The translations under genes and the position numbers were made by a program. From positions 314,588,001 to 314,652,000 of the forward strand of contig CM097883.1 of the NCBI GenBank assembly GCA_044892505.1: DNA of 64,000 bases, read 5' to 3'. The notes under the pieces were generated by a model, which saw nothing but the letters and a program-made list of their open reading frames with translations, ran no database searches and had not been told where the DNA came from. The stretch is from Schmidtea nova (lineage: Eukaryota). Below, one piece after another: positions 113-58,360 of the stretch; positions within the stretch are counted from its first letter, which is position 1; each line of letters begins with the position of its first letter.

Positions 113-3100
113 CGTTTCGTCCGTCAACGGTATCGTGTGCAATGTTACATCACATGTTCCTAAATCCAAATCTGATGCTGCGAATATATCTTTATATTCC
201 ATCAACAGTTTCTGTAACTGTTCTTTTTGTCGTTCGTCTAACAACACACTGTCGATTTTCCATGGTAATTCGTCTTTGCTTTTCTCGTTCTTGTCTGGTA
301 TTTCGATTTCGGACATGGGTGTCAATTTACCCAATCTCTCATTCTCATATATTATCTTGTCCTCTTCGTCGAAGTTCACCAGATTGATCGGTATTTCTCC
401 TTCTTGGTTTATCGTGACCAATTCTCTTGCCATTGGTAATTCTTTCTTCACTTCGAACTTCTTACTTGGTTCGAATACCATATCTCCTTTTATTGTCGAA
501 TCGATCTTGACGTAGCACATCATTTCGTGTCTCGCTGGCACTACTATTTGTTCCGCACTTGCCACTTTAACTTTCATTCTGCAGATTTTTCCTGTTCTGT
601 CTTTTAGCTTCATTGCTCCTAGATCAATTACGATTTCCTTGAACAGGTCTGGCATCAGGTCAGTTCCAATAATACATGGTACACTCAGCGATGGTATTAC
701 AGCGATGTACGTGTTGATCTCTGCACCTCGATGCTTAATTTTTACAAACCATCTTCCGGCTACTTCTACTGTCTCCTGACTGCACGCGATTACATGTACA
801 TTCGTTTTCTCAATTTCTCCTTGGTTTTTCTCGGGTATATAGTTAATGTCGATTGCCGAAATATTCGCGCCTGTATCGATCATAGCTTCAATTTCTCTGC
901 CATTTATTTCTACGGTTGTTGTTAAGATCGGTCCCATATTTGTGGACATAACCGCTATCGTGTGCGTGTCTTCCAACGAGTTTACGCTTCCGCCTCGTTT
1001 TACTTTGCATCCTTCGGGAATTATCGGGTATATACTTGTCATCGGCATCATCTGCCTCATATTCGGCTTCGCTTTATATATCGGTTCGTTATACATTGAT
1101 TGGGGTGGAGCACTGTATCTCCAATTCTCAACCGCACTCTTTTCGGTATATTGTGGAATCTGGTTTATATTCGCTTGTCCTCCTCGATCGTCATCATCAT
1201 CTTCATCATTGCTTGAATCATCTTGCGTTCGATATCCTCTCACTCTTTCCCATAATCCTTTCCTTTCCTTCTTCAGTTGTCGCCTTGCTTGTTCGTCTTG
1301 TATTATCTTTTTGAATTTCCTTCCAACATCTTCATTTGTTCCTTTCATTTTCGCAAGTATCTTCAACAACCTCTTTATTCGATGTATGTCTTTTGAGTGT
1401 CCGTGTAACACCATCGTTTTCGCAAGGAATGGTAAAAACCCTACTACCATTTTCCAATTCACTTTCTTTTCTCTCTTGTAGATGTCGAAACACGCTAACA
1501 TTTGAGTTATTATCACTCTGACGATTTGTATTATCAGTATAACCCCCAGTATTCCAGCCATCATTTGTCCAAATATCAGGAATCTTCCCCACATTGCCTT
1601 CATCATATTTTCTGTGGCTTTCTTGAAATGTGCCGGTGACAACAACAGTTCGTAATTCGGTCCTTCTCGATAATTCGTTCCTCCCGTTATTGTTACGATA
1701 TTTGACAGTAATGCTTCTCTTCTTGCCGGGAATAATATATTCTGCCTTGCCGCTTCTAAATCTTTTGGACTATAGATTCCGTTGTTTGAGACATCTACGT
1801 CACTGAACTGTCTATCCTTTGACAACTGCATTAGCTCAAATTCTCTTGGTGCTAATACTTCAGTTCTTCCTGGGAACATAACCCATTTGCCATCTGGCTT
1901 CTGATAAAGCGGTCCGTACGCATTACTACAGTTGAATGGATTTGGTTCAAAACTTGGTGGATTGATGATTCTCGTCACCGGTTGAACGTATCGTACTTTT
2001 CCTTTATAATCGATTTCTAATTCATTTGTACATTGTCCAGGTTTCAACTGCGTTGTTGCTGCTAGCGATGCGTGTGTTTTTTCGCAAATGTATACGTACA
2101 TTGCTTCTCCGACCACTCTTCCGAAATGTCCTTCTCTCAGTGGTAATAACGGCATCGCGCTATCTGGATTCGTAATCGCTACGGCCAACTTTGTCTTCAA
2201 TATTTCTCGATTCAGTATACAATCGTTGTTTATCAGATCGTAGTACACTTTTTGTAATGAGGCTTGTCCTCTATGGAATAAGAAATCCATTTTATTATTC
2301 ACATATAAGTGTAGCTTGATATCCATTGTGTCGATCTTGGGTTTCGCATTCGGCACTTCTTGTTTCGACACGTATATTCCTGGATAGTTTGTTTCGTATA
2401 CTGTTGTACTGCACTTAAGGGTTGCTTTCCCTTTTATGAATCTCATTCCCACATCCTGATTTGTGGTTATCAACACTGTTGGTGTGGTTCTCATCTCTAT
2501 CCGTTTCTCTCTATGATCTGGTTTCAATTGTCTTTTGTTCTCTAAAGCCTCCTTGAGATGTTTTGCTCTAGCTTTGTCATCATCGTCTTCTTCTTGGAAG
2601 GTTTTTCCTTGAATTTCGTCGAACTTTGCTCCTTGTAGCAGTTGTAATTGACATTCGTTCACTTTTGGTTTATACACCAAAGTTGACATTCCCGTTTGAC
2701 ACATGCTTCTGTCAATTTTGCACATGGATAACGTTTTCATTTCTCCTGTTGTTGGTTCGAAGAATGCTTCGTAGCTTTTCAGTTCGACTATATACGTATC
2801 CATTACCACTAAGTTGGTTGCGGGTACTCCGAATATCGGATAGGTTTCTCCTTGACAATACCCTTCTCCTCCCGTAATTCGTCCTGCTACATAATACGTC
2901 TGCTGTAACATCATTCCTGGTTTTCCTTTTATCTTGATTTTATCTCTCGTTGTTACTTCTCCATGTTTAAATAATGCTTCGCAGTCTTCCCCTTGCAACA
3001 CGATTGGTTCTCTTTCGGTTCCTGGCATGACAATTGCTGAATAATGTCCTCTCCCACAATAGAATGCGAATCTCGTCTTCTGTACCTTGCATTCATTCAC

Positions 3101-4351
3101 CATTGTCTTTATTAGTTCTGCCTCTTGATACACGTGGTACCATTGTTCCTTTTTGATCTCTTTCAATTCTACTGGAGTTGCATCTTTGCATTGCTCCGTA
3201 CCTCTCAATGAGTACTTTTCTCCCAATTTCATTTGATCACAATCAAATACTTCAAATGTTGTTACACCTTCCGTGCTTAACAACCATACTAACATCATCA
3301 TGATTATCGAGTTTAAATTCAACGTCGATCTTCCGTTTCCTTGCATCGTTTGTCTATTCTCCATTTCTCTCAATACTCCTTCAAGTTTCTTTCTCATCAC
3401 GTTTGAACCCTCTTTTGTCTGGTTCTCTTTTATGAACTTTTCCCATCCTCCTTTCCTGAGGATATATGGTTCAATTTCTTTCTCGATAATCATCGCCGTA
3501 TTTTTAATATGTCTTCCCATCGGACTTGACTTCGGACTTCCTCGGCTTAGCGTTAACAAATTGTATATCGTATACGAGATTGCTACCATATATTTGCTGT
3601 CCGTTTCTGCTCCGTTAAGTAGCCTTTTTATTAACATCGTGGTTCCTTGCCAATCTAGATGATTCGATTTTGTTTTAGCTTTTATCAATTCTGGCATAAT
3701 CGGTGCTATTGCATTGTGTAGCATCCTTGCCTTTGTCCTAGGTTCGTTTATCCGCCACAAATTCTTTAATTCTGGGTCAATTATCGCTAACACATCCATT
3801 ATCGTTTTGGTGAGCCATTCCTCTCCTTGGCAGACTTGATTCTCCTCTTTGCCTCTGATTTCTGCGATTTTATCTAATTTCTTCAAGCAAATCTCCCATT
3901 GCTCTTGTCTCCTTTCTTCCCTTGATTTTGGGATTGTTGTTGCTGGATCTGTCTTTGGTCTTCCTCTTGGTCGTTTTTCCATTCCAGTTCCGGTTTCTAC
4001 AAATCTCGATGCTCTTCCGGTTTCTTCTGTAACGTCTCTTCCTTCGTTCGCTCGTTGTTCTAACCATCTTTCCATTTCTTGAGTAAACTGTGGTTGTTCT
4101 TGTTCGTCCTCCGAATCGTTTACCATTTCTATGACTACCTCCTGTTCCACTCCTTGATCGTCGATTTCTGCTGGTGACGTTATTGGCATCTCTATTATTC
4201 TGTCAAAAATATTCGCCGTTGGTTTTTGAGTTAACTTCGTTAGTTCTTCTATCGCCTCATCACTATCTGTTAGTATCTCATCGACGTCATACGCTTCTGG
4301 CGGTGTTCTCTCTCTCGTTTTTATTGGTGTTGTCCTTGCTTGTTCCTGGGG
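2..4351 (-). CDS. pol: Polyprotein part 2: acidic linker, Bcl-2-like domain, gB-like Env, protease, spacer, RT start (open to window edge)
   Basis: Manual translation gives a stop-free frame from 4351 (after TGA 4352-4354) to position 2; first ATG at 4189. It is absent from the ORF track because there is no stop in the window. Confidence 0.9.
653..934 (-). other. Retropepsin-type aspartic protease domain
   Basis: VEINGREIEAMIDTGANISAI (DTG at 869-877) ... CIIGTDLM. Confidence 0.93.
1409..3307 (-). other. env: Class III fusion glycoprotein (chuvirus-like / herpes gB-like Env) domain
   Basis: Hydrophobic signal, then FEVFDC, YCGRGHYSAIV, YVNNKMDFL, YYDLINNDCILNREIL, GEAMYVYIC, CTNELEI, PVTRII, NGIYSPKDLEAARQNILFP, and TM WGRFLIFGQMMAGILGVILIIQIVRVII. 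These blocks match recalled chuvirus-type G motifs in the same order. Confidence 0.85.
3422..3820 (-). other. Bcl-2-like helical domain
   Basis: BH2-like EPYILRKGGWEKF (GGW 3443-3451) and a degenerate BH1-like PELI...LDWQGTTMLI about 65 aa upstream, followed by a hydrophobic anchor. Confidence 0.55.
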
Positions 4352-4442
4352 TCATTGTTGACTTCATCGGACTTGGTGTACTCATGCTTCCTTTCGCTTT
4401 CTTTTCCTCTTTAAACTTCAGTGGTTGACCCACTATTTGTGC

Positions 4443-4643
4443 CACTGTTAGCGTATTCATTAGATCCAATTGCACTGGTGTCAGTCAGATTTCAAAATTG
4501 TTATCCAACGATCGTCCTTGATGTTGCAGGTGGAATGGTAGTTCGTACATCAGTTTCTCTTTAACACTTTTCACTTTCTCTGTTAGCATCACCCAAAACT
4601 CTTCTTTTCTTTGATTCGGATACATTATCCTCAAATGTATTTT
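4443..4643 (-). other. Ubiquitin-like domain 2 (spans the TGA at 4485-4487)
   Basis: KIHLRIMYPNQRKEEFWVMLTEKVKSVKEKL...FHLQHQGRSLDNNFEI*LTPVQLDLMNTLTV follows the beta-grasp pattern. Confidence 0.5.
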
Positions 4644-7600
4644 CTGTGGCGTTTCTTCCGCAGACTCTTTGTTTCTCCACTTTTTTATTACATCGTCTAG
4701 TTGCTCCGGACACCACTCATTTACTCTCTTGTATTCTGCTATCGCTTTAGCTACTTTTCTCAAGTTCGTTATGTCTTCCCCATTTGTGATTATGAATTGT
4801 GCTAAGCCTTTTATTGTTTGTCTTTTTCCCCGAGTATTTCCTCTCAATAGCTCGATCAATTCACTCGTTTTCTGTTTCTCCAATTCTGCCCATATTGCTG
4901 CAGTTTCTGGTCCGTCTAAGTCCGTTGGTAATAACCTCCTTGTTACCATACATATCCGTTTCGTATTCCGTTCATATCTGTCTTCTCCTTCCGGATCTTC
5001 TTCATACACGCCTCTTTTCACTTTCCAACATTTCTCTTTGTTATCCCATTGTTTCTCTACTGGCGTCAATCGTCGTCTGTTAAGATCCAATTCTCCCAAT
5101 ATTGTCTCCCATTCTGGCTTCATCTGCCAGTTCCGATAAATTTCTACTATCTGCCTCAGCTTACGCATAACGTCCTCTCGTCGTTTCTTTTTCCTTTCCT
5201 CATCTCTTGGTGTTGCTCTTTGCACATCATCCATTCTGATGACGTGTATTGTCTGATAATTATCCCATATGCCGATTTTATACGCTCGTCTTTCATCGCG
5301 TTCATTCAGTAGATGTTCTTTGTATTTTATCGCTATGTCATCCTCAAATTCGTCTTCCCGTTCTCGTTGTAGTATCGTCTCATTGATGACCTCTACTATT
5401 TCCCCCACTTTACTATCTGGTATTACCTCAATTTGTTTTGTCTCTTCGTTTGGTAATCTCACGGTAATCTTCAGATCTGATACTTCTCCTCTTTTAAACA
5501 TTTCTTTTCCCATCTTTGCGATTAGCTTGTCCGTTTTGAAATTTGAATGTCTCGTTTGACTTGTATCTCGTATGTTCTCGATACATTGCTTCAAATTCTC
5601 ATACTCGCTTTTCGTCAGTTCCTTTCGATGTTTCTTGATTTGTTGGATGATCTGTTCTATCATCGTATTCAAATTCTCCGCCAAGATTCTTTCTTTTGCC
5701 TCTACCAACTGAGGTTTTATTCTCATCTCATAACACGTATTCGCTTCTTTGACGATTCCTTGTAAGTTCTCTTCCTTTTTGGTGTTGCATATAGATAGCG
5801 TTGTTATTTCTCCTGGCCAGATGCCTGTGTCTATCATATGCGTTCCTTTTCTCACCAATCCGTTTTCCGAATATATGAATTTGTCTTTGTACGAGCTTCC
5901 CAATCTGTCCTCAACCCATCGGTAAATTCCGTCTGTCATTGGGTTCCTTATCCAGATTCTCGGTGAACACTCGTTTATCCATATCTGTATTATGTATTCG
6001 TTCAGTGGTTCTTTCAATAGCCTCTCTATGAATTCTTGTATTACCCTCACTTCTCTTTCTTGTAACCACTCTTTATACTTCATCTGCCATACTGCTCGTA
6101 TAAACTTTCGATATCGTTTCGTGTCGATAAACTCCTCGTTATGGATCACTTCCAACGCGTTATCCATCAGCTTCTGAATTTCGTCTTCCGTTACTGACAA
6201 TGTTTCTATTGTCTCGACTACTTCCATCTTTTTATCCTCGTTTTCCGGTTCCTTTAGCATGTCTCCTGCCAGACTGCTAACTTCGCTGTCGTCTTCTTCA
6301 TCTGACAACTCTTGTCTTGGGTGTCTCAGCATCCCAATATGCGCGGTTGGTCTCGCTTCTTTTTTGCTAACTTCCTGTGTTAGTTCATTCTCGTTTCCCG
6401 TTATTTCAGCTTTTCCCATTCTTTTTCCTAATTCATCTATTTCTTCCAACCGTCTTCGTCTTATTTTCCCTTTAAATATTCGACTGATCCGGGTTTGATG
6501 TTTCACTGGTGGTGGGATTTTCTCCGGTTCCACCTCTCTGATGATCATCACGTTTATTTTTGTCTCCGTTACTCCCATGTCTTCCCATGTGTCAGTCATC
6601 TTCAATTTTACTTCTGGCAAATCCTCTGTTTGTAGGAATGCTTCTCTGGGCAGTTTCGTTACTCCCGGAATCATCTCATTTACTTTATTGAACAATCTTC
6701 CCACTTCTTCTTTTACATCGTATTTGAATCGCCACACGTGATCATTCGGCATGATCACCAACATTCCTCTTTGTTTGATTCTTACTTCCTCTTCTTGATT
6801 CGTTTCTTTTTCTGTTTCTTTTTCTGTTTTTGTTTCTTTTCTCACTTCTTCATCTTTTTTATTCTGTTCTGCAGTTTCTACTTCCTGATTCGCTTCTTCT
6901 TGTTTCTGCTCTTCGTTTCTTTTCTCTTTAACTTCGAGTTCATTTGACTCATCTTGCTGCTTCTCTTCCATCATTGCTCGCATCATGTTGATCCTTGGAT
7001 TTCCCTTTTTTAACTGTTGTAATCGTTGTTGCCTGACTTGTTCTTCTTCTCGTCGTACTCTAGCCCATTCTTGATTATGTTTCTGTTGGCTTTCTCTATT
7101 CTCTCTTTCGGCCTCAGCTTCTATTAACTGGATCATGTTTATCTTTGGTTGAGCAGCTTGCTGGCTTCCCTTTGCCATGCTTTCGATTATCTCGTGTAAT
7201 CTGGATACCTCCTGTCTCAACTTAGCTTCTTTCATACTAGCTTCGTTTGCACTGCTGTTTGGGTTGTTCCGTTGTTGACCTTGATTCCCATAGCTTGGTC
7301 GATTCCCGTAATTCGGTCTATTTCCACTGTTTGCCCAACTTCTCTGTTGATTACAGTCTTTTGACATGTGTCCGGTTTTTCCACATGTGTAACACGTTTT
7401 CCCATAACATCGATTCTCTGAGTGACCTTTTTGTCCACACAGTTTGCAGGCTACATTCTGAAAACAATCTTGTTGCCAATGTCCGTTTTTTCCACACGTC
7501 TGACATTGCCTATTCTGCCTGTCATTGTAACTGTTTCCTCCATTCGTGTTTACTGTGATATATCCATTATTTTTCCTCGCTGGCGGTTCTTTGAACAATC

Positions 7601-8222
7601 TCTGCGAATGGGGGATACTTTGATTCATGTTTCTTTTTCCTTGTTCTTCATCTTCTGTCGTTTTTCCCATTACCGCCGTAATTCTCATGTCATTCATTGC
7701 CATATGCAATTCGAATAGGTTGGCTGCTTCCAACGCTTCATCTACTGTTTTACATCCTTTGCATCCCACTTGTGCTCTGATGTCAGGTCTCCTGAGACCT
7801 CGTACGAATAACGCTGTCATCAATTCTTCGTCTACTGGGCTTCCTCTATTGAATGCCAGTTTCGCCAACTTTCTTAATTCGCTTGCGTACACCGCATTTG
7901 ACTCGTTTCTCCTTTGTTTTCTTGCTGAGAACTCATCGAACGCTTCGTTCAACACTTTATTTATCCCAAACGTCTGTTGGAAGAACTCCTTGATTGCTTC
8001 CCACGTTCTGGGTGGATTACTTCCCGATCTCTTCTCAATATACAGATCCAATGCGCTATCTTTCAAGTATAGCGGGATTCGATTCGCTAACGTTTCTGCA
8101 CTCCATCCGCATATATCCACGAATATGCCAAATTCTTTCAGGAACGTGTCCAATCTACTGGCGTCTCCATTAAATGGTTCGCCCTTGAATTTTTCTCTTA
8201 GATCCTCTCTGTGATCACTCAT
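4485..8222 (-). CDS. gag: Polyprotein part 1: Gag capsid, 3 CCHC zinc knuckles, coiled coil and accessory domains
   Basis: 1245 aa ORF with retrotransposon gag motifs (FNGD...FLKEF, W...K..F...F, FVRGL) and three CX2CX4HX4C at 7353-7505. The frame stays open upstream to 8705 except for one TGA at 8586-8588. Confidence 0.95.
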   Translation of the reverse strand: MSDHREDLREKFKGEPFNGDASRLDTFLKEFGIFVDICGWSAETLANRIPLYLKDSALDLYIEKRSGSNPPRTWEAIKEFFQQTFGINKVLNEAFDEFSARKQRRNESNAVYASELRKLAKLAFNRGSPVDEELMTALFVRGLRRPDIRAQVGCKGCKTVDEALEAANLFELHMAMNDMRITAVMGKTTEDEEQGKRNMNQSIPHSQRLFKEPPARKNNGYITVNTNGGNSYNDRQNRQCQTCGKNGHWQQDCFQNVACKLCGQKGHSENRCYGKTCYTCGKTGHMSKDCNQQRSWANSGNRPNYGNRPSYGNQGQQRNNPNSSANEASMKEAKLRQEVSRLHEIIESMAKGSQQAAQPKINMIQLIEAEAERENRESQQKHNQEWARVRREEEQVRQQRLQQLKKGNPRINMMRAMMEEKQQDESNELEVKEKRNEEQKQEEANQEVETAEQNKKDEEVRKETKTEKETEKETNQEEEVRIKQRGMLVIMPNDHVWRFKYDVKEEVGRLFNKVNEMIPGVTKLPREAFLQTEDLPEVKLKMTDTWEDMGVTETKINVMIIREVEPEKIPPPVKHQTRISRIFKGKIRRRRLEEIDELGKRMGKAEITGNENELTQEVSKKEARPTAHIGMLRHPRQELSDEEDDSEVSSLAGDMLKEPENEDKKMEVVETIETLSVTEDEIQKLMDNALEVIHNEEFIDTKRYRKFIRAVWQMKYKEWLQEREVRVIQEFIERLLKEPLNEYIIQIWINECSPRIWIRNPMTDGIYRWVEDRLGSSYKDKFIYSENGLVRKGTHMIDTGIWPGEITTLSICNTKKEENLQGIVKEANTCYEMRIKPQLVEAKERILAENLNTMIEQIIQQIKKHRKELTKSEYENLKQCIENIRDTSQTRHSNFKTDKLIAKMGKEMFKRGEVSDLKITVRLPNEETKQIEVIPDSKVGEIVEVINETILQREREDEFEDDIAIKYKEHLLNERDERRAYKIGIWDNYQTIHVIRMDDVQRATPRDEERKKKRREDVMRKLRQIVEIYRNWQMKPEWETILGELDLNRRRLTPVEKQWDNKEKCWKVKRGVYEEDPEGEDRYERNTKRICMVTRRLLPTDLDGPETAAIWAELEKQKTSELIELLRGNTRGKRQTIKGLAQFIITNGEDITNLRKVAKAIAEYKRVNEWCPEQLDDVIKKWRNKESAEETPQKIHLRIMYPNQRKEEFWVMLTEKVKSVKEKLMYELPFHLQHQGRSLDNNFEI
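5232..5471 (-). other. Ubiquitin-like domain 1
   Basis: KITVRLPNEETKQIEVIPDSKVGEIVEVI...IAIKYKEHLLNERDERRAYKIGIWDNYQTIHV follows the ubiquitin-fold pattern. Confidence 0.55.
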
Positions 8223-8705
8223 CCCGATTCCACTATCTTGGAATACTGTACTAGTTTTCTTTACTTCTAGTTCACCACTTGTTTCTGGATTCGACTCTTC
8301 TTCTTCACTACTCTCTGTTTCGTTATCTCTTGATTCGCTTCTTGTTCTGTTTTCCCTGACTAGTTCACTGTCTATCGTCTCTACTTCGTTTTGTACTTCT
8401 AGATCTTCTGGGGTTTCTTCTTGATTCTCTTTATTACTCGAATTATCGCTGATCTCTACTTGTTTGTTCTTTTGTTGCTTAGGCTTGTTACCTGTTCTTG
8501 TCCTTTTCGCTGCTTTTCTTTCTGCTTCCGTTAAGATTGGTATTATACCTGATCTTGTTTCTCGTCCCTCAATTTTGTCTATTCCTCAACTGCTTATATT
8601 CTCAACTGCTTTTCTACTCCGCTTTTGCTTTGCTTCTTCTTTGATTTGTTTCTTTTGATTGCTCTGACTGCTAGATTGCTTTGAATTGCTTGATTGATTT
8701 GTTTC

Positions 8706-8766: not shown

Positions 8767-9097
8767 GGGTGTAGTCATAATTCATGAAGATCCCCATTTT
8801 TCCCATTTCCCTTGATTTTAAGTCTATTTAAATTATCTATGCAGTCGCATCAATTATCTATTCTTTATCAAATACACCAATTACTTTTCCCCAGTTTCCC
8901 AATTACTTTGTCGCTCAGCGCTCTTATTATCCCCTTTACTTTTCTCAGGCTTCTCTGGCTCTGAGTTCAAATCCCCCTTATCTGTCTACTACTCTATTTC
9001 CCAACTATTCGCTTTATCTCCTATTCGCACTACGTTTACTACTTCATTTCAATTCTCATCTCTACTCACCTTTACTTCAACTGACATCTCTCGTTGG

Positions 9098-9476
9098 CCT
9101 GCTGGGTTTTCCAGTCAGCGCTTTTAATCTCACCTTTTATCTCGAACTCTGTTTCTCTCAACTTCACTCATTATCCCATTAGCCTGCTGGGTTTTCCAGT
9201 CAGCGCTTTTAATCTCACCTTTTACTTCTGCTTCATTATTCTCGACCTCAATTGTCGTTTCATTAGCCTGCTGGGTTTTCCAGTCAGCGCTCTTATTATC
9301 CACCCTTTATCTCTTCACTGTCGACTTTTACCTGTTCTTTGCTCCGATGATCATCACTTTTGACCTGCTGGGTCTTCCAGTCAGCGTCCTCAATTTCACT
9401 ACTTTATTATTACTCACTTTTATTCTCTCGATCTTTCCTGATCGTTATCATTGACCTGCTGGGTTTTCCAGTCAGC
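9098..9476. repeat. Five 22 bp hairpin-forming repeats (CCTGCTGGGTTTTCCAGTCAGC) with 62-75 bp spacers
   Basis: Copies start at 9098, 9183, 9267, 9364 and 9455. Confidence 0.9.
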
Positions 9477-9803: not shown

Positions 9804-10445
9804 ACGAGAACTATGCTCACTGCTGAGAACTATGCTCACTAACGAGAACTATGCTCACTGACGAGAACTATGCTCAATGACGAGAACTATGCTTACTGAC
9901 GAGAACTATGCTCACTAACGAGAACTATGCTCACTGACGAGAACTATGCTCAATGACGAGAACTATGCTCAATGACGAGAACTATGCTCACTAACGAGAA
10001 CTATGCTCACTGACGAGAACTATGCTCAATGACGAGAACTATGCTCACTAACGAGAACTATGCTCACTGACGAGAACTATGCTCACTGGCAAAACATGGT
10101 TGTTATGAGGGTTTTGCTTACTGATGGAAACTCTTTGCTCCGGGGATTATGTTCCCCGATGAGAACTATGCTCACTGATGGTGACTACAGGAATTATGCT
10201 TCCTGATGAGAACTACGCTCACTACGATGACTATGTTTATTGATGAGAACTACGCTCACTGATGAGGACTATGTTCGCTGTTAGAACTTACGTTTATTGA
10301 TGAGAACTCTGCTCACTACAAGATTTATATTTACGGACGAGAACTATGCTCACTATGGTGTTGTGTTTTATGACGAGACCTACGCTCACTAGGATGTTAT
10401 GTTTTATGACGAGACCTATGCTCACTATGAGACCTATGCTCACGA
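9804..10445. repeat. 19 bp tandem array (ACGAGAACTATGCTCACTG), degenerating rightwards
   Basis: About 15 near-perfect units to ~10090, then degenerate copies. Confidence 0.95.
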
Positions 10446-11142: not shown

Positions 11143-11601
11143 TTACAAGTACACTGTTATTTTCTCGGATACAGGTAGGTTGCACATAGGACATCGTTCA
11201 TTTATTTTACAGTCATTACAGAATCGAAAATGCCCACACGGCAACAACATTATCTGTATTTTGTTTATTTCACAGATGTAACACGTCAGATATTGTCTCG
11301 TATGTTCTGTTGTTATTCTTATCCACTCATCGTGTTTTGTTGCAATCTGTTGTTCTAGCCTGTGGCACTCGATATTCATCTCAGGGTTGTTTAATCGCTC
11401 TCTATACCACTGATATCGTGTTGCTGTATCCACTGTTATCTTATTCTCGCTTATGCTCATCATCATTTCGGCTCTTTCTGTGTTGTTTGTCGGTTCGTGG
11501 TATCCTCCTACCTCGAGTCGTTTTAACTTTCTCGTTATGGTCTCCACTGTTTCGTTGTTTGTCTCGAAAAACGTTTGCATTTCTTTTATTTTGTTCTCCA
11601 T
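11143..11601 (-). CDS. Coiled-coil + C-terminal RING-HC protein (IAP-type RING), putative E3 ligase
   Basis: CYICEINKIQIMLLPCGHFRFCNDCKINERCPMCNLPVSEKITVYL: C3HC4 with the LLPCGH signature at the extreme C-terminus. Confidence 0.85.
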   Translation of the reverse strand: MENKIKEMQTFFETNNETVETITRKLKRLEVGGYHEPTNNTERAEMMMSISENKITVDTATRYQWYRERLNNPEMNIECHRLEQQIATKHDEWIRITTEHTRQYLTCYICEINKIQIMLLPCGHFRFCNDCKINERCPMCNLPVSEKITVYL

Positions 11602-12135
11602 CCCCTGAATGAATTACCATTTATTTCTGTCGATTTTTATTTATTATTCCTTATTCTTATTCTATGGTAGTCCTACTGTTCGCTTTCTGTTGTTCTGTTT
11701 TGCGTCACTGCGTGTATATCCCCCCGTGTTCTTGAATGTCGCCCCGACATGATCATTGTTAGTTGCTCACACTCATACCATTTTCATACGCGCTTTTCAG
11801 CATACTTTTACCTTACGTCATGCATACTTTTCATCACTTTTCATACTGTTATTCCACATACTATTCCTCATACTTCATTCATCCCCATACTTACATTCCA
11901 TTGTCATTCATTCTTTCATTCTCATGTATACTTTTATCATGCTCATCACTCTCATTATTTTACACCCATACTTTATTTATTATTTTTCAACCCGATTCAT
12001 TCTTGCTTCAGGACCCTTAAACCCTCTGTTATCGTTTACTTTACTTTTCGTCGCTAATTTCGATTCCATCCCGGTTCATGCGCTCTAAACTTTCCGCAGA
12101 TATCGAATTCACTTTTTCCCACAAAGATCGATTTA

Positions 12136-12153
12136 ATCCCGGCTGAGCCCCCA
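12136..12153 (-). promoter_or_regulatory. Primer binding site complementary to tRNA-Pro
   Basis: TGGGGGCTCAGCCGGGAT is 16/18 identical to the MLV PBS-Pro TGGGGGCTCGTCCGGGAT and lies directly after the LTR end AATT. Confidence 0.88.
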
Positions 12154-12313
12154 AATTTATGCTGGTGTGTTGGTTGGATTGACAACTGAGATCCTTATGA
12201 TTTTATACGTTAGGGTGATCTCGCCAACATAAAAACATTCCCCCCGCTGACACCCATGATGTATCCCTAACTACTCATCATGTTGGTGCTGTGTCAACGT
12301 TGTGAAATGACAA

Positions 12314-12382
12314 GGCAGGTGAGCAACCTTTCGGCTACTATTCCCTTGTTTATTCACGGGTCCACCACTACCGATAGAAGGT
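12314..12382 (-). ncRNA. Conserved structured RNA motif with GNRA hairpin (copy 1)
   Basis: CCTTCTATCGGTAG...GGACCCGT...TAG-TAGCC GAAA GGTTG-CTCACCTGCC; covarying relatives at 42278, 46364 and 52281. Confidence 0.55.
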
Positions 12383-12545
12383 GTCTGTGGCTTTCTTTCG
12401 GTCCCACTTATGCTCTTTTCTATTGTCCTAGGGTGATTCAATTTTATTACATCTGCGGCTTTAAATGAATCCGGGTTTTAGTTATATTCAATTCTCAGTC
12501 ATTCCACAAACAAACAAGACAAGTCAAATCATTCGTTTTATACAT

Positions 12546-13166
12546 TTATTTATAGTTCAACAATACAGAGGGTCGTATTACATTTAGTAGTTCTTGCTCG
12601 GATAGACCACTGAGCAAGTCTACTTCGATTCCAAGGCGATCTGCATACGCGCGTCTCTCCCTACGCTTTTTCGCTCCCAAGCGCTTCCGTCTCTTTGTTC
12701 GTTTCGAGCCTTCCAGAATGATTGGGGATGTTGGGGTAGTTGTGATTGGGATGGTTTCTATCTCCGTTTGGGTACTTGTTGTCATCGATATTGTGTCCAC
12801 CCACCTATTAAAGGTGCTAGTCCTGATCACTGGGCGTAATTGCTCGGTGATAAACTCCTTGGTTGATGCCCTCAAGTAATTCGACAGCTCCATCTTTAGG
12901 GCTGCTACCTCCCTAGCTTGCTCGTCGATTGTTCGCTCCGCTCTGTATCGGGCTTGCAGGATAGTTTTAACCCTCTCTGGGTTGAACCACGTGGCTTTAA
13001 TTCGCTGGTGCTCTTCGTTTAGTTGACGCAAGCGGTTTTCTAGGACTCGCGATCGTGCTTTATGCTCTTTGGCCTCTTGTTTGTAGTCCCTAGTCGGATG
13101 TTCACTCATCTCTGTAAAATGTACAATTAATCGGGTTATGTATGGTTTGTCTGTTCTCTCAGTCAC
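12546..13166 (-). CDS. LTR-encoded accessory protein B (coiled coil, Arg-rich motif, Leu-rich C-terminus)
   Basis: Intact ORF with homologs at 42580-43167 and 45815-46153; AATAAA overlaps the stop. Confidence 0.75.
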   Translation of the reverse strand: MTERTDKPYITRLIVHFTEMSEHPTRDYKQEAKEHKARSRVLENRLRQLNEEHQRIKATWFNPERVKTILQARYRAERTIDEQAREVAALKMELSNYLRASTKEFITEQLRPVIRTSTFNRWVDTISMTTSTQTEIETIPITTTPTSPIILEGSKRTKRRKRLGAKKRRERRAYADRLGIEVDLLSGLSEQELLNVIRPSVLLNYK

Positions 13167-13300
13167 TATCTTTATTATTAAACCGGTGTTTCACTCTCAG
13201 ATCACTTCATGCATTCAAAGACATAACAAAACCCAAAAATTAATACATTTATTTTTAATACACCTCTCATCTTTCTTCGAATGATCGATTTCCTTGCGAT

Positions 13301-13936
13301 TTAGATGAAGGTTCGTAATTCCTGGTCGGCCGTGTTCTCGTCACGACGGATTCCACTTTCGTAGTAGAACTCCGGGGCGGGGCTCCAACTTAACTTGTCC
13401 CGAAAGATGAATACCTCCCAGAGACGAAGGTCTTTGGGCTCGGGTTGTTGGTCCAACGAAACGCTTCCCGGCGCGTTTGAGTAGGCGAAGACTTCCCCAG
13501 TGTCGCCACACCGAGGCCTGTCTAGCAGCAGGTAACCGAGTTGATGTAGCTCTTTTCCGGACATCATTCCAGTACTTAGTAGCCAGCGGGGCTGCTGTGC
13601 TTCATCCACGAATTGGTAGAACCATCGGGGATTCTCCGGTTTGCTATGATCCGAGGAGGGTACCCAATCAGTATCTCCTTCCCACCGCAACTGTAGTCCA
13701 AACGCGCAAGCTGGGGTGCTAGCGGCTGAGCTCATGTGAGCCCTCATCCATCGTCGTAGGTGGCGACGTGATACTTCTGCGACCTTTCGAGGTGCTTCGT
13801 TCTCTCCTCTGATGTTTATGATCGTATTGGGTCGGATGACGGAGCGGGTGCGCCGTTTCTTACGAAGGATGGTGTCCTCTATCTTTATCGGGTGCGCGGT
13901 CATCGGCTTCTCTTGGAAATTCTCTAGTTTCACCAT
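13301..13936 (-). CDS. LTR-encoded accessory protein A (unknown family)
   Basis: Intact 211 aa ORF with homologs at 34627-35229 and 43252-43761. A TATAAATA lies ~60 nt upstream and an AATAAA downstream. Confidence 0.75.
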   Translation of the reverse strand: MVKLENFQEKPMTAHPIKIEDTILRKKRRTRSVIRPNTIINIRGENEAPRKVAEVSRRHLRRWMRAHMSSAASTPACAFGLQLRWEGDTDWVPSSDHSKPENPRWFYQFVDEAQQPRWLLSTGMMSGKELHQLGYLLLDRPRCGDTGEVFAYSNAPGSVSLDQQPEPKDLRLWEVFIFRDKLSWSPAPEFYYESGIRRDENTADQELRTFI

Positions 13937-14871
13937 AGTATTTCTAAAGAAGATGGTTGTTTGTTAACTATGGATTCTATGGTATAACGGGCCTATTTAT
14001 ATTAGTCAACCCACCCGTTATACTTAATTTTCAACACTCATGTTCAACCACTCAGCTTTAACAGTTTTTATTTATCGATAATACTATTTAATCACATTCA
14101 ATCTCATCAGTCGTTTTCAATTACTTCCTCATCTAACCAGCAATGATCATACCATGTCGGGTAATTCTCGTAAGTACCTGTGATCCGTACACGCTGGGGT
14201 TCATCATTTTATCAGTTCTCAATGCCTGTGATTTATTTATCATCTCTCTTGGCGATTAAACGCGTCTGACAGAGGTTATCGATTACCCTTAACCCTTGAT
14301 ACTAGGTTCACTATTCCCGAACTCGTAAGCGCTAATGTTGACATATACCTACCCTCGTCGTCACCTAATTCATCGGCACTAATATTATTCACTACACGTC
14401 TATCCCTCGTCTAGACTTCACCGCGATATATGTCCTTCCTATAAAACGGGTTTCACTTTGCGCTCGTTTACGACTACTAGTTTATACTCGATACCCTATC
14501 ATCGTGATGTATAACGTTTACATTAGATCATCTCTACCTTGATTTCGTTCATGATCATTAGGTCTTACTCGATACCCTATGTGCATTTAACCCCTTCCGC
14601 TTTCCAAATATTTAATACACCTATGGTCCCGCCGCATCAGCACCTCACAACCGAAAGATTGTGTTGCGCTGAGAGGCCCCAAGAATCCGTCAGGCTGTTA
14701 GGCCTCCGGAAAACCTTATGGATTTTAATATGGTTATAAACAATTATGAGGGTTTAAATACATCAATAACATAACTCCAAATTACCTTTTATTTTCGCTT
14801 CGAAATCGGTATTACAACGTTTTCAGTAAGTCACAAGAGCTTACACTTGGTAAAAAATGACATATTCAAAT

Positions 14872-14922
14872 ACTGATTTTACTTCAGTATTTATACTGAA
14901 CCGGTGTTGTTGGTTAGCCAAT
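14872..14922 (-). promoter_or_regulatory. CCAAT + TATA (TATAAATA 14895-14888) + TCAGT initiator-like promoter
   Basis: The same CAGTATAAATAC and CCAAT spacing occur at 44698-44732. Related TATA boxes are at 33068-33075 (+) and 53161-53168 (-). Confidence 0.6.
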
Positions 14923-15684
14923 CAGCATCGAGTATGTGTGTTTGATCATTATTCTGTGTTGCCGGCTTTTTGCTGCCTAACTTAACTCGCCGATTTGTTT
15001 GGTTAATCATGCGGTAAGTTTATTTTTTGTACGATTTAATTTTTATTTGATTTTGCTTTAGGTCTTCGGTGACATCCGCCCACGCGCTGTCATATTCCAA
15101 TTTTTTCTGCTTCGCATGAGTGAGTTTTGAAGATTTTTGTTGTTTTGATTAATATGTTATTTCTTTTAGATGTTGCCGCCTATTTTGTTACGCTTTGGTG
15201 TTGGTAATTTATTTTGTTGTTATTCTGTATTTAATTTATTTTATTGATTGTACATTATTTTCAGATGCTGCTCGATTTGGCTGGCCCAACAGAAGCAAAG
15301 ATTGCTGAAAGAAAATTCAAGCCAATTTTATTTATACTGAAGCTTTATCAAAGTTTATATAGTTTTCTAACTTACAATCTCCCTCGTCGACGGCTGCTAA
15401 ATTGTAAAGAAGCTAAAAAAGAAAAACTTTTCAAGTAACCTTTCGTGGTTTTTTATTATTTTGTTATTAATAAATATTAGTAATTTAAAATAGTGCTGTT
15501 TATTTTATTGTATCTTATATACTTTTATATTTGATTGTTATTATATCATATCAGTAACCGCACTACACAGCACACACCCCGAGTGTCGACACATTGCTAA
15601 CGTCTGACTCTCTCGGGATCTACAACTCTTCTACACATCCACCCAATCAACAAATTAAAAACTCAAATTAGAACAGCTCAAACA

Positions 15685-38237: not shown

Positions 38238-41200
38238 CAGCCCTGGATTTACGAATAGGCACACTAGGCACCTGCCTAGGGCGGCAAATTTAGAGGGCGG
38301 CAAATTTAGAGGTCGGCAAAAAATTAGTATGTAACCGATAAGAAAAATTCAAATTTTCAAAAAATTAATTTTTCGTTTCTCTAGAATTGAATATGTAAAA
38401 ATTAATGTACAGAAAAAGTTTATATAATGTCATATTCATCGTTTTGTATGTATATGTATATAAAAATGTTTATGTTTAAATGAATACAACACCATATCAA
38501 ATTGAAAAAATAAATTCAAATTCAAATATTTTTTGTTCTAGTAGGCATAGACATTGGTATATTTGTTTTGTTATTGACAATTATTGACAATTATTGACAA
38601 CTTATTGTAGATACATAAGAAAAACATAATTTTATGCGTTTGTGTCCACTTGTGCCATTCATAAGTTGTTATTGGAGTCAAGCAGTCAAGAAATTCTTTT
38701 TGTTTGTAATTTATTAAGAAAGGCTACTGTTTTTTATTGCTGATTAATCTTAGTTTTCTCGCGGTTATATTTGCGTAAGTTTGCTTTCTCTGTTCAAATA
38801 TAAGTTTTCAAATTCATTTTGAAATTTTTTTTTAATCTTATTTAATTAAAATAAAGTTTTTATTCAGCTATTGAAATGAGTGACGGAAGGAAGAGATTAA
38901 GTGGTGCGAAGTATCGTCAGGAGGCCAAAGAGAAATTGGCAAAACAAAGAAAAATTATTGAACAATCTACGAAAATACAGTCGTACTTTAACATATGCTC
39001 AAGCTCAGGTGCTAATGGTAAAAATATTTCAGATCTAAATTTAATAGAAAATGTACCATCTTTGTCCACAGAAAATACCATTATTTTACCAGTTTCATCC
39101 ACAGAAAATACCGTTATTTCACCAGCTTTGTCCCCACAAAACATTAGTTCCAATTCTAGTTTAAATAAAACAACTGATGGTACTGAAATTGCCACAAACA
39201 TTGAAAATACGAACATCAGTACCATGATATCTATAAGTAATGATCCTGGTAATTGGAATATTGACGAATCCTTGATTGATTTTGTTGTAAAGTTTGGTTT
39301 CAAATCCAATAAGAATGTAGATTTCAGTACATCGAAAAAACTATTTGGTGACAAATATCGTTGTTTGAACGTGCAGAATTTTTCGAAAAAATTAAAAAAT
39401 GGAGAAACTCATGAAAGAGATTATTTATCGTATTCAGAGTCTGATAAGGCTCTATATCGTATTCCTTGTTATTTATTTAAAGATAATAGTTCTTTTTCTA
39501 AAAAGGGTGGATGCTCAGATTGGAAAAATATTTCACAATTATTAGAATCCCACGAAAATTCTTCTACACATCGCCGTTGTGCTATGATCATGATTGAAAG
39601 AAGTAACATGAGTGTAAGTGTGGAAACATTTTTGCTCAAAAATTTTAAAAACGAATTAGATTATTGGAAAAAGGTTTTAAATAGAGTTGTCTTTGTCATA
39701 AAGAAGCTATGTAGCCGAGGATTACCTCTCGAGGACACAGTGAAAAATTTTATGGCAATCACAATGGAAATTTTATGATGTCACTAGAAATGATTGCAGA
39801 ATATGATTCATTTTTGAAAGAGCACATACTAAAGTATGGAAACTGTGGTTCTGGAAAAACTTCATACATGTCAAAAAAAATATGTGATGAATTTATTAAT
39901 ATAATTGGAATAGAAGTGAGAAACAAAATAATCAGTGATATAAAAAAAGCAAATTATTTCTCTATAATTGTTGATTCGACACCCGATATTTCTCACACTG
40001 ACCAATTATCATTGATAATTCGATATGTTGATATTGCTAACGGCAAAACAGTGGAACGATTTTTAAATTTTTTCGACAATGTTGATCATAAAGCGGACGA
40101 AATGTTTGAAGTAATATTGAAGTTTTTGGATAAATTCAAATTAAATTTGGCAGATTGCAGGGGACAATCATATGATAATGCAAATAATATGTCCGGAATC
40201 TACAACGGCTTAAACGCTAAAATTTTAGGAATAAATTCACGTGCTATTTTTGTCCCATGTGCTTGCCATTCTATAAATTTAGTTGGTCAATGTGCTGCTG
40301 AGTGTTGCACAGAAGCTGTGCATTTTTTCATACTAATTCAAAAAATTTATAAATTCTTTAGTGTGTCAACAAAGCGGTGGGCTCTATTGAAAGCAAAATT
40401 AGGGCCAACCGAAAAACTACCGAAGTCCTTATCTGACACTCGTTGGTCAGCTAGATCAGATGCCTGCACAGCCTTGTTTCAAAATTATAAAGAGATAATT
40501 GATTTACTTAAAGAAATTGAAAGTGACAATTTGGAAAAAGTATTGACTCGTACTGAAGCTGGCGGATTATTAAGAAAAATGGAAAAAATGGAAATGGCAC
40601 TGCTCCTTACTATTTGGCAAACTATTTTAGAACGTTTTGATAGTGTAAATAAAAAATTACAAACCGCTAATACGAACCTGCTTACTGTTGTTCAGCTATA
40701 CGATTCGTTATTAGACTACTTTTTGGAAATGAAGCAAAAATTTTTTAGATTTCAAGAAAAAGCTTTGACAATTTCGGTTAGCTCTAGTTATGAACAGAAA
40801 AGAAATAGAAAAAGGAAAATGCATTTTGATGAATCCGAAGATGATGAGATTATAACAGATAGTCCAAATGAATTATTTAAAAAGAATGTATTTGATAAAA
40901 TTATATCAGTTTTGATAAAAGAATTACAAAAGCGTAAAAATTCATACAATTTTTTGAATGAAAAGTTTGGATATCTCGAAAATATATGTTCTATTGATAC
41001 CCATGTTATTATAAAAAAACAAAAGATCTGTACGAATTTTATGAAAGGGATTTGGACTGTAACGAACTAATGGAAGAAATTCTTCATTTTAAACAGCTTT
41101 TACAGAAAAGTGATTTATCCGACTCTGAAAGAAGTATCGCAAACCAGTTCAATTTTTTATTTAAAAAAAAATATAATAACGTGTTTCGAAATTTGGAAAT

Positions 41201-48349: not shown

Positions 48350-49472
48350 ATGCGTGGCAATATTGATGAACGTGGAAAAAAACTTTTCATAGGTGGACTT
48401 CACTTGAAAACCACCGAAGAAAGTCTAAAAGGATTTTATTCTCAATGGGGAGAAATAGTCGATGTCGTAGTAATGAGAGATCCTCAAACAGGCAAATCAC
48501 GTGGATTTGGATTCGTCACCTATTCCGATTCGTCATCAGTTGATGATGCTCAAAGCAATCGGCCCCATGAAGTAGATGGCATAAAAGTCGACTCAAAACG
48601 AGCAATGCCTAAAGAAGACACATCACCAGAATTCCATGCAACTGTTAACCGATTATTTGTCGGTAGACTCAAGCGAAATGTTGTTGCCGATGATTTGAGA
48701 CAATATTTCGGTGAATATGGGACTATTGCTGATGCAGTTATAATAAACAATTCTAATGGCGAATCACGGGGTTTTGGATTTGTTACTTTTGATGACACCG
48801 ACTCAGTTGATAAGATAATTGTCACTCGACCCCATCAATTGGATGGAAATCCCATAGAAGTTAAGAAAGCTCTACCGAGAGATGATAATAGTAGTAGTAA
48901 TAAATCTAACAGACAACAATCGAATCCAGGTAAAACTTTAATTTTTCATTTTTAAGAAATGAGATTTGATTAATCAAGTTATAATAGGAAATAGATCCAC
49001 ACCACGAGGAGGCTATAGCAATAGTGTTGCTTCAAATAACCGTTACTCACAAGACGACTATAGTTCTTCATACGGTAGCTATCCTACTGCTGCTAATAGT
49101 AGTAGCAGCACCTATAACAATAGGAACTATGGAACTACTACTGGTAGTGGTGGTTTTAATCAAGGATACTCACAAAACTATAGTAGCAGCAATAAGTTTA
49201 GCAACAACAATAGTAGATTAAGTGACAGTTTCGAAAATAACGAACTCAGTTATAGTCAACCAACATACGCTAATGAAACTAGTTACAACAGTTACGGACA
49301 ATATGATACACCTAACCCCCCTTCGAGTCGATATGGTTATCCTCCATACAATAGTATTGGTGGTGGTGGTATGGGTGGTGAGTATAATCAAAGACAAGGC
49401 GGTGGTCCAATGAGGGGAGCGCCAAGACCCAGTAGGGGTGGCGCTGGTGGATATGGAAATTATCCTTATTAA
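48350..49472 (+). CDS. hnRNP A/B-family RNA-binding protein (2 RRMs + low-complexity tail), 2 coding exons
   Basis: RNP2/RNP1 LFIGGL/RGFGFVTY and LFVGRL/RGFGFVTF. Phase-1 GT-AG intron 48930-48987 (58 nt); spliced product 354 aa; AATAAA at 49571. Confidence 0.93.
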
Positions 49473-55366: not shown

Positions 55367-58360
55367 TTAGTAAATTGTGTCTCTTTGACTTTTATTTTCT
55401 TCCATCAAGATTTTTTGTATTCTACTGAGATTGTTTACTTGCTTTTCCAACATGTGGACTCTATTATTTTCCCATTTGTTTATGTTCCTCAACTGCTTTT
55501 GGTTTCCTTGATTTGCGTATTCCTTGTTGTTTTGATTAATTTTCGCCTGATTCCTTGCTATGGTACACTGGAATGCTAAATGTCCTCTTTGTCTGCATTG
55601 GTAACATATTTGTACATACTCGTGAGTCACTTTGTTTCGTTCCTTCTTGTGATCGTTTTGAACAATTCAATTTTCGTAATACCCTTCTACATGTTTGTTA
55701 TTATTATTTATGAATTCGTATTGCTTCGTTTCCTTTGTTGTCTTTCACATAATTTCGTTACTGATTTTGTCCAGCTGATTTTGGTTTTCCTGTTGTTTCT
55801 TGCGATTCCGGAAATTTCTTGAAATGTGCCCTTTTTTCCCACAGTTGTAACATCCTTGAATACCACAAACTTTCTTTCCATGTCCTTTCCTTCCACATTT
55901 AATACATATTTTGTTCTTGAAACAGCTGCTTTCTAAGTGTCCTTGTCTTTGGCAGCATTTACACCATTTGTCCTTTTTGTATAGATACTCTTCTTTTAGT
56001 TCTTGTTGGCCTTTCTTTTCCTTCTTTTCATTTTTGTTTCCTTCTTCTGCGTTTCTGGTTTGTTCTTTTCTCTTTTCGGCTTCTGTCATATCGTTTATTA
56101 CTGACTGCTTGCTGTGTTTATTTCCCGTAACAAGTTGATCTATTATTATCTTTCCCATTTCTTCGATTATTTCGCTTTCAATTATGGTTTTTCTGTCCTG
56201 TTCTGTTTGGTTCCTCGTCTCTATTTTTCTAAGCATATTGATTCTTGGTTTATTCTTTTCTTGTTGTCCCCATAGTTCTTCTATCTTTTGTGCACTATTA
56301 CTTCTATTCGCCATTTTCAACATATCTGCTTTTAGTAGTTCTTCCTTTATCTTCCTCCAATGTTCCTCGTTGCCACACGCCTGCAATCCTCATATTTTAC
56401 TCCACCTGAATTCTTCTTGACGGGCTTCTTTGATTGTTGGCTTTTGTAGTTCTGATTGACAACTTGTCATCATGTTGATTCTCTCTGTTATTCTTGCTAG
56501 TTCTTTTCCATTCTCTTTGAATTTCGCGGTTTCGTCCTTTTTACTTGTGACTGCTATTTGTTTGAGTACTTCTTCAAATTGTTCTTTTTGTTCCTGGAAT
56601 CTTCCTTGTAATATACGAGCTTCATCTCCATTTAGTTTGCTACTACGTTCTTCTCCTATTCTTGCCTCATCTAATTGCAGCTCTAGCCATTCTCGACGTT
56701 GTTTCTGTTGTGGTGTTTCTTCTGTTAATGTTGGTTCGATGAATGTAAGTTTGTTGATTTTTGGTTGTTGCTCTATCCTTGTTATCCTTTTGATCACCTC
56801 GTTTAGTCTAGAGATTTCTTCCAATTGTCTTATTTCTCTGTCATTTGCGTTGTTGCTCAGACTGTTGTTTTGATTATAGCTGTTTATTTCATTTCCATTT
56901 GTCTGCGGGTTTCTGTGTAGATTATTTTTGGTCCCACATTTTCGTGCTATATGTCCTAATTCGCCACAACTATAGCATCCCGGTACTCCAAATATTTTCT
57001 CAGAATGTCCCCACATCTTGCACTTCTCACAAAATTGATTTTTATAACACTCACTCCTCGAATATCCGGGTTTTCAACATGTTTGGCATTGTTTGGTGTT
57101 GTTCAGGGTGTTATTGTTTCTGGGTTTATTCTCGATGTTGCCTCTATCGTCGTTATTTTCTTTTCTTGTTTGTCTGTTCCCAGTTTTTTGGTTTGTATTC
57201 GTTGGCTAACTTGATTTCCTTCATCTTTCGATTCGTTTGATGTTGCTGTTAGGACTCTGCTGTCGTTTACCCCTATATGTAACTCATATCTATTTGCAAT
57301 TTCTAGTGCATCGTCAATTGTTATGCATCCTTTACAACCCACTTGAGCTCGAATATCTGGTCTTCTCAATCCTCGTACAAATATTGCTGTCATCAATTCT
57401 TCTTTCATTGGGTTTTCCATGTTGAATGCTAGTTTGGCTAATTTCCTTAGTTCGCTTGCGTATACTGCATTTGATTCGTTCTTCCTCTGCCTTCTTGCTG
57501 AAAAATCATCGAATGCCTGGCTTTATACTTTGTTTATTCCGAATGTTTGGTGGAAAAATTCTTTTATTCCGTCCCAACTTTTAAATGGTTTGGTTCCTCC
57601 TTTCGCTTCTAGGTACAAATCTAACGCACTGTCTCTAAGGTATAGTGGGATTCGACCGATTATTGTTTCTGGATCCCATCTATAATCCTCGACGAATACA
57701 CCAAATTCCTTTAAAAACGTTTCTAATCTACTGGCGTCTCCGTTGAATGGTTCGCCTTGAAATCTTTCTCGATATTCTTTTCTCTTTTGTGTTATTGACG
57801 ATGGTGGTGTATCTAACTCATTTCCGTTTCTTTCAATATTCATTTTCCTGTTTCTTGTTTCCGTATTTGTTGTTTTATTCTCCGTATACTTTTCTGGTTG
57901 TTCAATTTGTGCTTGGCTTTTCCTAGAGTTATCTTCGATGCTTGTTCTTGCTGTCTTTTGATAGAATTGGGTGTTTATTGAAATTTCTCTGTTTTCTTTG
58001 ATGTTTGATTCACTGTTTGTATTCTGGGTGTATTTATCGTTTGTTATTTGATAGGTTCTTTTTATTGATACTGATCGTGCTCTTTTAATTTTTTCCACTA
58101 CGGATTTGTCTAATAATTGGTTAAATTTAGAACTGGGTCTGAATTTCTTTCTGTAAAGATTCTCAATGATGGCGAATTTCTTTCCTGATTTGGATTCCGA
58201 TTTTTGTACGATTACTCAATTTACCGCTGACTTCTTTTTAACTTGGGTTTGTCCTCTTGAATTATGTTTTACTTGTTCTGTATCTGTAGCTTTCTGTTCG
58301 TTTGACTTGTTGGTTGTTGTTGACTTGAATTGGTTGCTTGGTTCGTTTTTTGATTGAAAT
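55367..58360 (-). pseudogene. gag: Frameshifted gag of element 2 with an expanded zinc-knuckle region
   Basis: FQGEPFNGDASRLETFLKEFGVF...IPLYLRDSALDLY, FVRGLRRPDIRAQVGCKGC; near-identical to element 1 capsid; ORFs 57523-58098, 57103-57420, 56390-57016, 55745-56386, 55367-55630. Confidence 0.92.

Follow-up and report, generated by a model that had tools for sequence, protein, structure and literature searches.

A conserved Bcl-2-like domain ahead of a likely internal Env signal sequence in a Burro-type retroelement of Schmidtea nova

The closest described systems to the locus analyzed here are the Burro/GYPSM1 retroelements of dugesiid planarians. In the account of Arkhipova and Yushenova (2019; PMC6431247), these elements exceed 30 kb and encode a polyprotein of 4,873 amino acids, in which a ubiquitin-like segment precedes a BCL2-like motif credited to Grohme et al. 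(2018), with Jurka (2007) also cited, and env lies in frame between BCL2 and the protease. The domain and its place before env are already known for Burro elements, having been in print since 2018-2019. That paper discusses neither a signal sequence, nor the topology of the product, the state of BH1 or the fold. The present analysis adds structural confirmation, a conserved cleavage register, the finding of a degenerate BH1 and evidence of selection.

A gB-type env between gag and a Gypsy pol is also shared with the HSV/gB-type GAG-ENV-POL errantiviruses of Platyhelminthes, in which, in the portion of PMC13524379 available, a signal peptide or a second transmembrane helix borders the ectodomain. 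By eye, the Smed_errantivirus_1 env row given there is a close match to one of the lineages described below (lineage C), and 'bcl' occurs nowhere in the available text and seven supplements of that paper. Other precedents concern what is cut from the front of Env: the available parts of two papers present Fsp, the signal peptide of FIV Env, as an autonomous accessory protein (PMC10128041) and the HERV-K Env signal peptide as released to the cytosol (PMC2649029). As far as these partial accounts go, the present case would be like FIV Fsp, HERV-K SP and MMTV SP in that, once signal peptidase has cut (a step that is here predicted), what precedes Env has a second role as an accessory protein. The FIV, MMTV and HERV-K leaders, however, are described as N-terminal and encoded in a separate env ORF (98-175 amino acids for MMTV and FIV), whereas here an apparently captured host fold is joined to Gag. 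With pro-survival and viral Bcl-2 proteins (Bfl-1/A1, Bcl-xL, BHRF1, A179L), the domain shares the whole-domain fold, BH2 and a hydrophobic helix on the C-terminal side; it differs from them in its degenerate BH1, in being embedded in a polyprotein and in having an internal helix followed by a 564-aa ectodomain, and its BH3 binding is putative.

The stretch of DNA analyzed (hereafter, the window) covers 64,000 nucleotides of the Schmidtea nova assembly GCA_044892505.1 (contig CM097883.1, positions 314,588,001 to 314,652,000) and contains the 5′ half of a Gypsy LTR element of the Burro type. The element lies on the minus strand, as do all of its features listed below by window coordinates. The 5′ LTR (12160..15291; 3,132 bp, TG...CA) has its 3′ counterpart 25,994 bp away, with four mismatches and a 4-bp target-site duplication (CTTC). 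The spacing of the LTR pair, the four mismatches and the duplication therefore define an element of 29.1 kb (25,994 plus the LTR length of 3,132, or 29,126 bp) that is very young. Just inside the LTR is a primer-binding-site-like sequence (12135..12154), putatively of tRNA-Pro type. Two LTR-internal ORFs of 214 and 220 codons (12549-13190 and 13304-13963, minus strand) are present in both LTRs and matched no convincing Pfam family. Upstream of gag, an accessory ORF (11146..11613) encodes a C3HC4 RING finger (PF13920, E 5e-9), with no BIR domain detected in this ORF by a Pfam scan; the leader between it and gag contains a 19-bp tandem array of 15 copies with related 36-38-bp units (9804-10430), as well as an 84-bp repeat (9097-9313). 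Four sequencing runs of unrecorded kind yielded no informative joint for the element.

The gag frame (4488..8585) encodes three CCHC knuckles (7505-7353) followed by a long charged region. Two segments of this frame, near 5477 and 4643, look ubiquitin-like on weak evidence: the window element gives an RA-like match at E 0.046, and lineage C a ubiquitin-like one at E 0.0034. In this copy, gag is cut off from the Bcl-2-Env-Pol frame by a stop codon (4485-4487) and a frameshift within 4310..4490, the site of the latter being placed where translation begins to match sibling copies. The downstream frame (4351-2; 1,450 codons) encodes the Bcl-2-like domain, Env and, in frame after Env, a retroviral aspartyl protease (647..919), and runs off the window edge. 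Past the edge (L021), RT, RNase H, integrase and ankyrin repeats follow in the same frame. The 633 codons upstream of the GGW motif of the domain are open in 18 of the 20 best-ranked copies, the window copy included, with this copy and L014 as the exceptions, and in sibling copies the domain is in frame with Gag within frames of ~5,090 amino acids. Searching the genome with the domain gave 1,193 candidates, of which 150 were scored and all 150 matched. Stop-free frames of 5,076-5,114 amino acids hold 26 of these 150 matches, and frames of 5,647-5,687 amino acids hold five of the 11 matches at 65% identity. The family thus encodes a single giant polyprotein of ~5,000 amino acids.

The sequence past the window edge holds further coding material. 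Three more hydrophobic segments lie in the polyprotein beyond the integrase and ankyrin repeats (L021:2330-4270, minus strand), the first of them followed by a small-residue motif that resembles a second internal signal site; the same region ends in a transmembrane helix at the C terminus, has repeated segments containing Cys in between, and may form a second lumenal or surface module. Downstream of the polyprotein, a separate and complete ORF (L021:351-1778, minus strand) encodes a TRAF-like protein with RING, zinc fingers and MATH (E 4e-27). Two more accessory ORFs lie ahead of the 3′ LTR (L085:4504-5031 and 5102-6100, minus strand); one, of 176 amino acids, has N- and C-terminal hydrophobic stretches, and the other is coiled-coil-like and at least 333 amino acids long. 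Elsewhere in the window are a decayed relative of the same gag (55800-57800, minus strand; 66% identity over 193 amino acids), beside which no Bcl-2-like or env remnant was detected in the window, and, by eye, two long frames resembling a hAT-type DNA transposase (38855-41067, plus strand) and a 201-codon frame resembling an hnRNP A1/Musashi-type RRM protein (48350-48952, plus strand).

The element thus described is like Burro/GYPSM1 in its length of ~30 kb, its ~5,000-aa polyprotein, a Gag with three CCHC knuckles, a putative ubiquitin-like segment, the BCL2-like motif, an in-frame env before the protease, the RT-RH-IN order, the ankyrin repeats and the TRAF/MATH and RING cargo, a likeness to Burro1-4/GYPSM1 that is drawn from published descriptions as opposed to sequence comparison. 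It is unlike them in that TRAF/MATH occupies a separate downstream ORF and in that the RING ORF shows no detectable BIR.

A preliminary description of the window had proposed a Bcl-2-like domain ahead of Env. The domain (3416..3826) lies inside the Env-Pol frame and is predicted to form eight helices. An AlphaFold model computed from a 14-row alignment of retroelement sequences only was all-helical, with pLDDT 82.6 and pTM 0.80. The comparison of this model with known structures, a check that the preliminary description had put forward, pointed to a Bcl-2 helical bundle. Every row listed by Foldseek against the PDB belonged to the Bcl-2 family (TM up to 0.74), and the top named rows among viral structures were v-Bcl-2s. 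When Foldseek's matches were realigned with VIA-align, all 50 listed rows were again Bcl-2 family, headed by Bfl-1 (Z 14.6, rmsd 2.5, 132 residues aligned over model positions 1-137), a score near the level of Z 13 that helical bundles can reach by chance; the sequence evidence is independent of it. Identity to most of the top structural matches was 13-17%. A six-sequence family profile retrieved Bcl-xL from the PDB sequences at E 9e-8, in an alignment spanning BH1-BH2, and hhalign paired the family with a cellular Bcl-2 protein at probability 96. Five domains were scanned against PF00452 (cut-off 31.4): two from lineage B passed, at 34.9 and 34.6, two from lineage C fell below, and that of subfamily A2 gave no match.

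It could be argued that the resemblance is a matter of chance, the segment being a generic helical stretch that happens to contain GGW. The window domain on its own matched no Pfam family at E up to 10 and nothing relevant among PDB sequences, and in the ESM Atlas it found only low-score leads (best 0.76); in addition, helical bundles may obtain middling structural scores. A word-index homologue search with a 6-row alignment, among longer proteins of up to 2,000 amino acids, found none at E 0.001 or better, which counts as weak evidence. Against this, the profile, the Pfam matches of sister lineages, the fold and the literature all agree, and a chance resemblance is effectively refuted. Taken together, the model and the profile comparisons establish the Bcl-2 fold and homology of the domain, as the preliminary description had supposed.

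The domain is not peculiar to this copy. A PF00452 search of the genome returned host Bcl-2 genes together with many matches in frames of ~3,000 amino acids; those inspected proved to be other env-bearing elements with the domain at the same place. A third lineage, reached through its env, carries the domain as well. In this genome, the three env-bearing lineages examined all have the domain ahead of env, as do six distant relatives, and its distance from the env [YF]DC motif is 53-82 residues in six subfamilies here and six outside proteins. When 1.84 billion representatives were searched with a profile, there were 24 matches, consisting of more retroelement domains, cellular Bcl-2 proteins and two repeat-driven false positives, P0002 (saposin) and P0016 (ankyrin), which were dropped; in six of the 24, the same env follows. 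A tree was built of 30 sequences (14 retroelement and 16 cellular; the fragments P0006, P0014 and P0022, as well as P0019 and P0020, were left out), and in it a 98/94 branch separates the 14 retroelement domains from the 16 cellular sequences. A single capture of a cellular Bcl-2 gene, in an ancestor of the elements, is the probable origin of the domain, a reading that the tree, with its long branches and midpoint root, favors without proving. Among the sequences collected, L026-L029, L031-L034 and L084 are genes or exons of the host's own Bcl-2 family; in the tree, L027 and L029 join Bok-like-looking proteins, and several host genes also depart from the NWGR motif of BH1.

In three subfamily pairs, the dN/dS ratio of the domain was 0.06, 0.16 and 0.17, values that are rough since dS is near saturation. 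By this measure, the domain is under purifying selection. The linker that follows it appears weakly constrained, with a ratio of ~0.65 in pair A.

Two motifs of the family can be located within the domain. BH2 reads YILRKGGWEKF (3434..3466); the pattern [WY][ILV]xxxGGW occurs once in the two window ORFs of the element and in none of 2000 shuffles, and GGW is invariant in all 14 retroelement rows of the alignment. Upstream of the domain is an AT-hook-like motif, KRPRGRPK (3953..3976), for which Pfam AT_hook gives a weak match in lineage B (E 0.15). The BH1 region (3572..3622) is degenerate, with TDSK in place of the cellular NWGR. Its poor conservation, suspected from the outset, extends to the family: across the 14 retroelement domains, the tryptophan is kept in none, the glycine in one and a basic residue (R/K) at the arginine position in 12. 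One lineage-B copy outside this set of 14 (L036) reads NWDR. For BH3 binding, the glycine and arginine of BH1 are important. With the tryptophan missing from 14 of 14 domains and the glycine from 13, both BH3 binding and anti-apoptotic activity are therefore putative properties of the domain.

These features bear on the possibility that the fold was kept while BH3 binding was lost. The domain would then serve as a signalling scaffold, in the way of A46, A52 and B14 among the Bcl-2-like proteins of poxviruses, and would work alongside the TRAF, RING and ankyrin cargo. The loss of the BH1 tryptophan and glycine across the 14 domains would fit a scaffold, as would the presence of the TRAF/MATH ORF, the ankyrin repeats and the RING ORF in the same element and the persistence of purifying selection despite a degenerate BH1. 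On the other hand, a basic residue is retained at the BH1 arginine position in 12 of the 14 domains, the proteins that it matches best in structure are pro-survival and bind BH3, and A46, A52 and B14 are named in none of the 50 viral rows listed, several of which are unnamed. We regard a scaffold as rather unlikely.

The arrangement downstream of the domain agrees with the preliminary description, which had noted a helical domain ending in YILRKGGWEKF, then a hydrophobic stretch. From the motif (3466-3434), some 42 residues lead to the hydrophobic core SIIMMMLVWLL (3310-3278), which is likely an internal Env signal sequence; the interval includes a charged linker (3350..3406) predicted, at low confidence, to be helical. 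In a fold prediction that included the linker and the hydrophobic helix, confidence was low (pLDDT 58), and only the helix boundaries were used. The core is followed by STEGVTT and then, at 3256, by FEVFDC. The order of elements previously reported was correct, except that the hydrophobic segment does not directly precede FEVFDC (3256-3239): VTT stands between STEG and this motif. The polar c-region (3257..3277) thus ends in V-T-T, with a predicted signal peptidase site between 3257 and 3256.

The (-3,-1) rule for signal peptidase sites provided the criteria for examining this register. Twelve lineages were used, six from this genome and six from outside; P0003, P0007, P0006, P0014 and P0022 have no env junction and were left out. 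All 12 share a fixed register three residues ahead of [YF]DC, and their hydrophobic cores end 5-9 residues before it. A small residue at -1 and an allowed residue at -3 are found at this register in 11 of the 12 lineages; the seven other registers tried gave 0-7 of 12 (register +3 gives 7). Since the lineages share ancestry and the choice of register followed a look at the data, this makes for good as opposed to formal evidence of a signal peptidase site, and a binomial P value would overstate it. The core starts 34-61 residues after GGW in the retroelements, compared with 21-32 in seven cellular Bcl-2 proteins. Its best 19-residue hydropathy is 1.52 and 1.45 in the window lineage; lineages B and C have 2.1-2.45, and the tails of the seven cellular proteins span an overlapping range of 1.6 to 2.3. 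Together, these features suggest that the segment is likely a signal sequence, internal and cleavable, as opposed to a tail anchor of the classical kind, and the short core of the window lineage would suit a disposable signal better than a lasting anchor.

The earlier proposal had been that the tail anchor of the domain doubles as the Env signal peptide. The second half of this idea gains from the signal-peptidase-type site seen in 11 of 12 lineages; the first half must be modified, the segment being internal and its core lying farther from GGW than in the cellular proteins. Because the segment is internal to a ~5,000-aa polyprotein and would come to lie at a C terminus only once cut, the product would be inserted in the ER and fused to Gag until cut. 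Furthermore, the signal must act at the ER for Env translocation, so that the product would be ER-tethered, and Gag-linked at first, rather than a free mitochondrial tail-anchored protein. On the sequence evidence, a membrane-tethered Bcl-2-like product is plausible.

How long any tether would last is another matter. The segment may act only as a transient signal, removed after cleavage, leaving a domain that is soluble or part of Gag and that could have either function. The short core, the polar c-region and the long, weakly constrained linker lean this way, and the released, active Env signal peptides of HERV-K (in the available part of PMC2649029) and MMTV offer a precedent. A lasting anchor is better suited to lineages B and C, whose hydropathy is within or above the range of the cellular tails, and to the order of domain, linker and helix, which mirrors that of cellular Bcl-2 proteins. 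A purely transient role strikes us as possible and on balance doubtful. The tether might also be structural, with the domain and the signal helix holding Gag at the ER beside Env for assembly, in the manner of a matrix-like adaptor. The domain is indeed in frame with Gag in sibling copies and always adjoins the Env signal, and its BH1 is degenerate. Yet its BH2 surface is invariant, and other GAG-ENV-POL errantiviruses are not reported to have such a domain in the available part of PMC13524379, where accessory domains are not annotated. An assembly role of this kind is distinctly unlikely.

The region downstream of the presumed site encodes a Monjiviricetes/chuvirus-type fusion glycoprotein (Pfam PF24664, E 3e-72). 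This gB/chuvirus-type ectodomain (1565..3256) comprises 564 amino acids, with 14 cysteines, a furin-like REKR site and one N-glycan sequon, and is followed by a C-terminal transmembrane helix (1508..1564). Comparison of two subfamilies, A1 (that of the window) and A2 (L022), revealed 71% identity in the Bcl-2-like domain (dS ~3); for the env ectodomain the figure was 98% (dS 0.37), and at the predicted cleavage site (window position 3256) nucleotide identity jumps from 0.72 to ~0.9. The pattern suggests an exchange of env between A1 and A2 with a boundary near the signal site.

We were able to show the fold, homology, position, conservation and selection of the domain. The best explanation for them, to which we give slightly less than an even chance, is that a conserved Bcl-2 domain of a Burro-type polyprotein is left tethered to the ER by a cleaved Env signal and is likely pro-survival. 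According to this ER-tether explanation, the polyprotein would thread the ER membrane at the hydrophobic helix and return at the C-terminal helix of Env, a topology read from the sequence that would place Gag, the ubiquitin-like segment and the Bcl-2-like domain in the cytosol, Env in the lumen, and the protease and Pol in the cytosol again. Once cut by signal peptidase, the Env ectodomain would be released into the ER lumen, and the Bcl-2-like domain would stay tethered on the cytosolic face of the ER. There it might dampen host cell death, a role suggested by what is known of the fold and family, by the RING, TRAF and ankyrin cargo and by a report on the Burro1 cargo B-IAP, described at second hand, in the available part of PMC13465017, as anti-apoptotic and protecting planarian stem cells. 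A bolder form of the explanation is somewhat unlikely: an ER-anchored pro-survival Bcl-2 protein would be made with the Env signal, each maturation of Env would release a death inhibitor, its BH1, lacking NWGR, would bind planarian Bak/Bok-type proteins non-canonically, and the whole would constitute a second anti-apoptotic arm beside B-IAP in stem-cell survival. The idea of a tail anchor for this domain was not found stated in the literature searched, in which coverage of subscription journals was thin.

Large DNA viruses are well known for Bcl-2 mimics; to find one in a retrotransposon is unusual. If the domain inhibits death and the signal anchors it, these high-copy elements would carry two anti-death modules, one IAP-like and one Bcl-2-like, with a bearing on the part reported for Burro1 in the survival of planarian stem cells. 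If true, the locus would also provide a further case of an Env leader doubling as an accessory protein.
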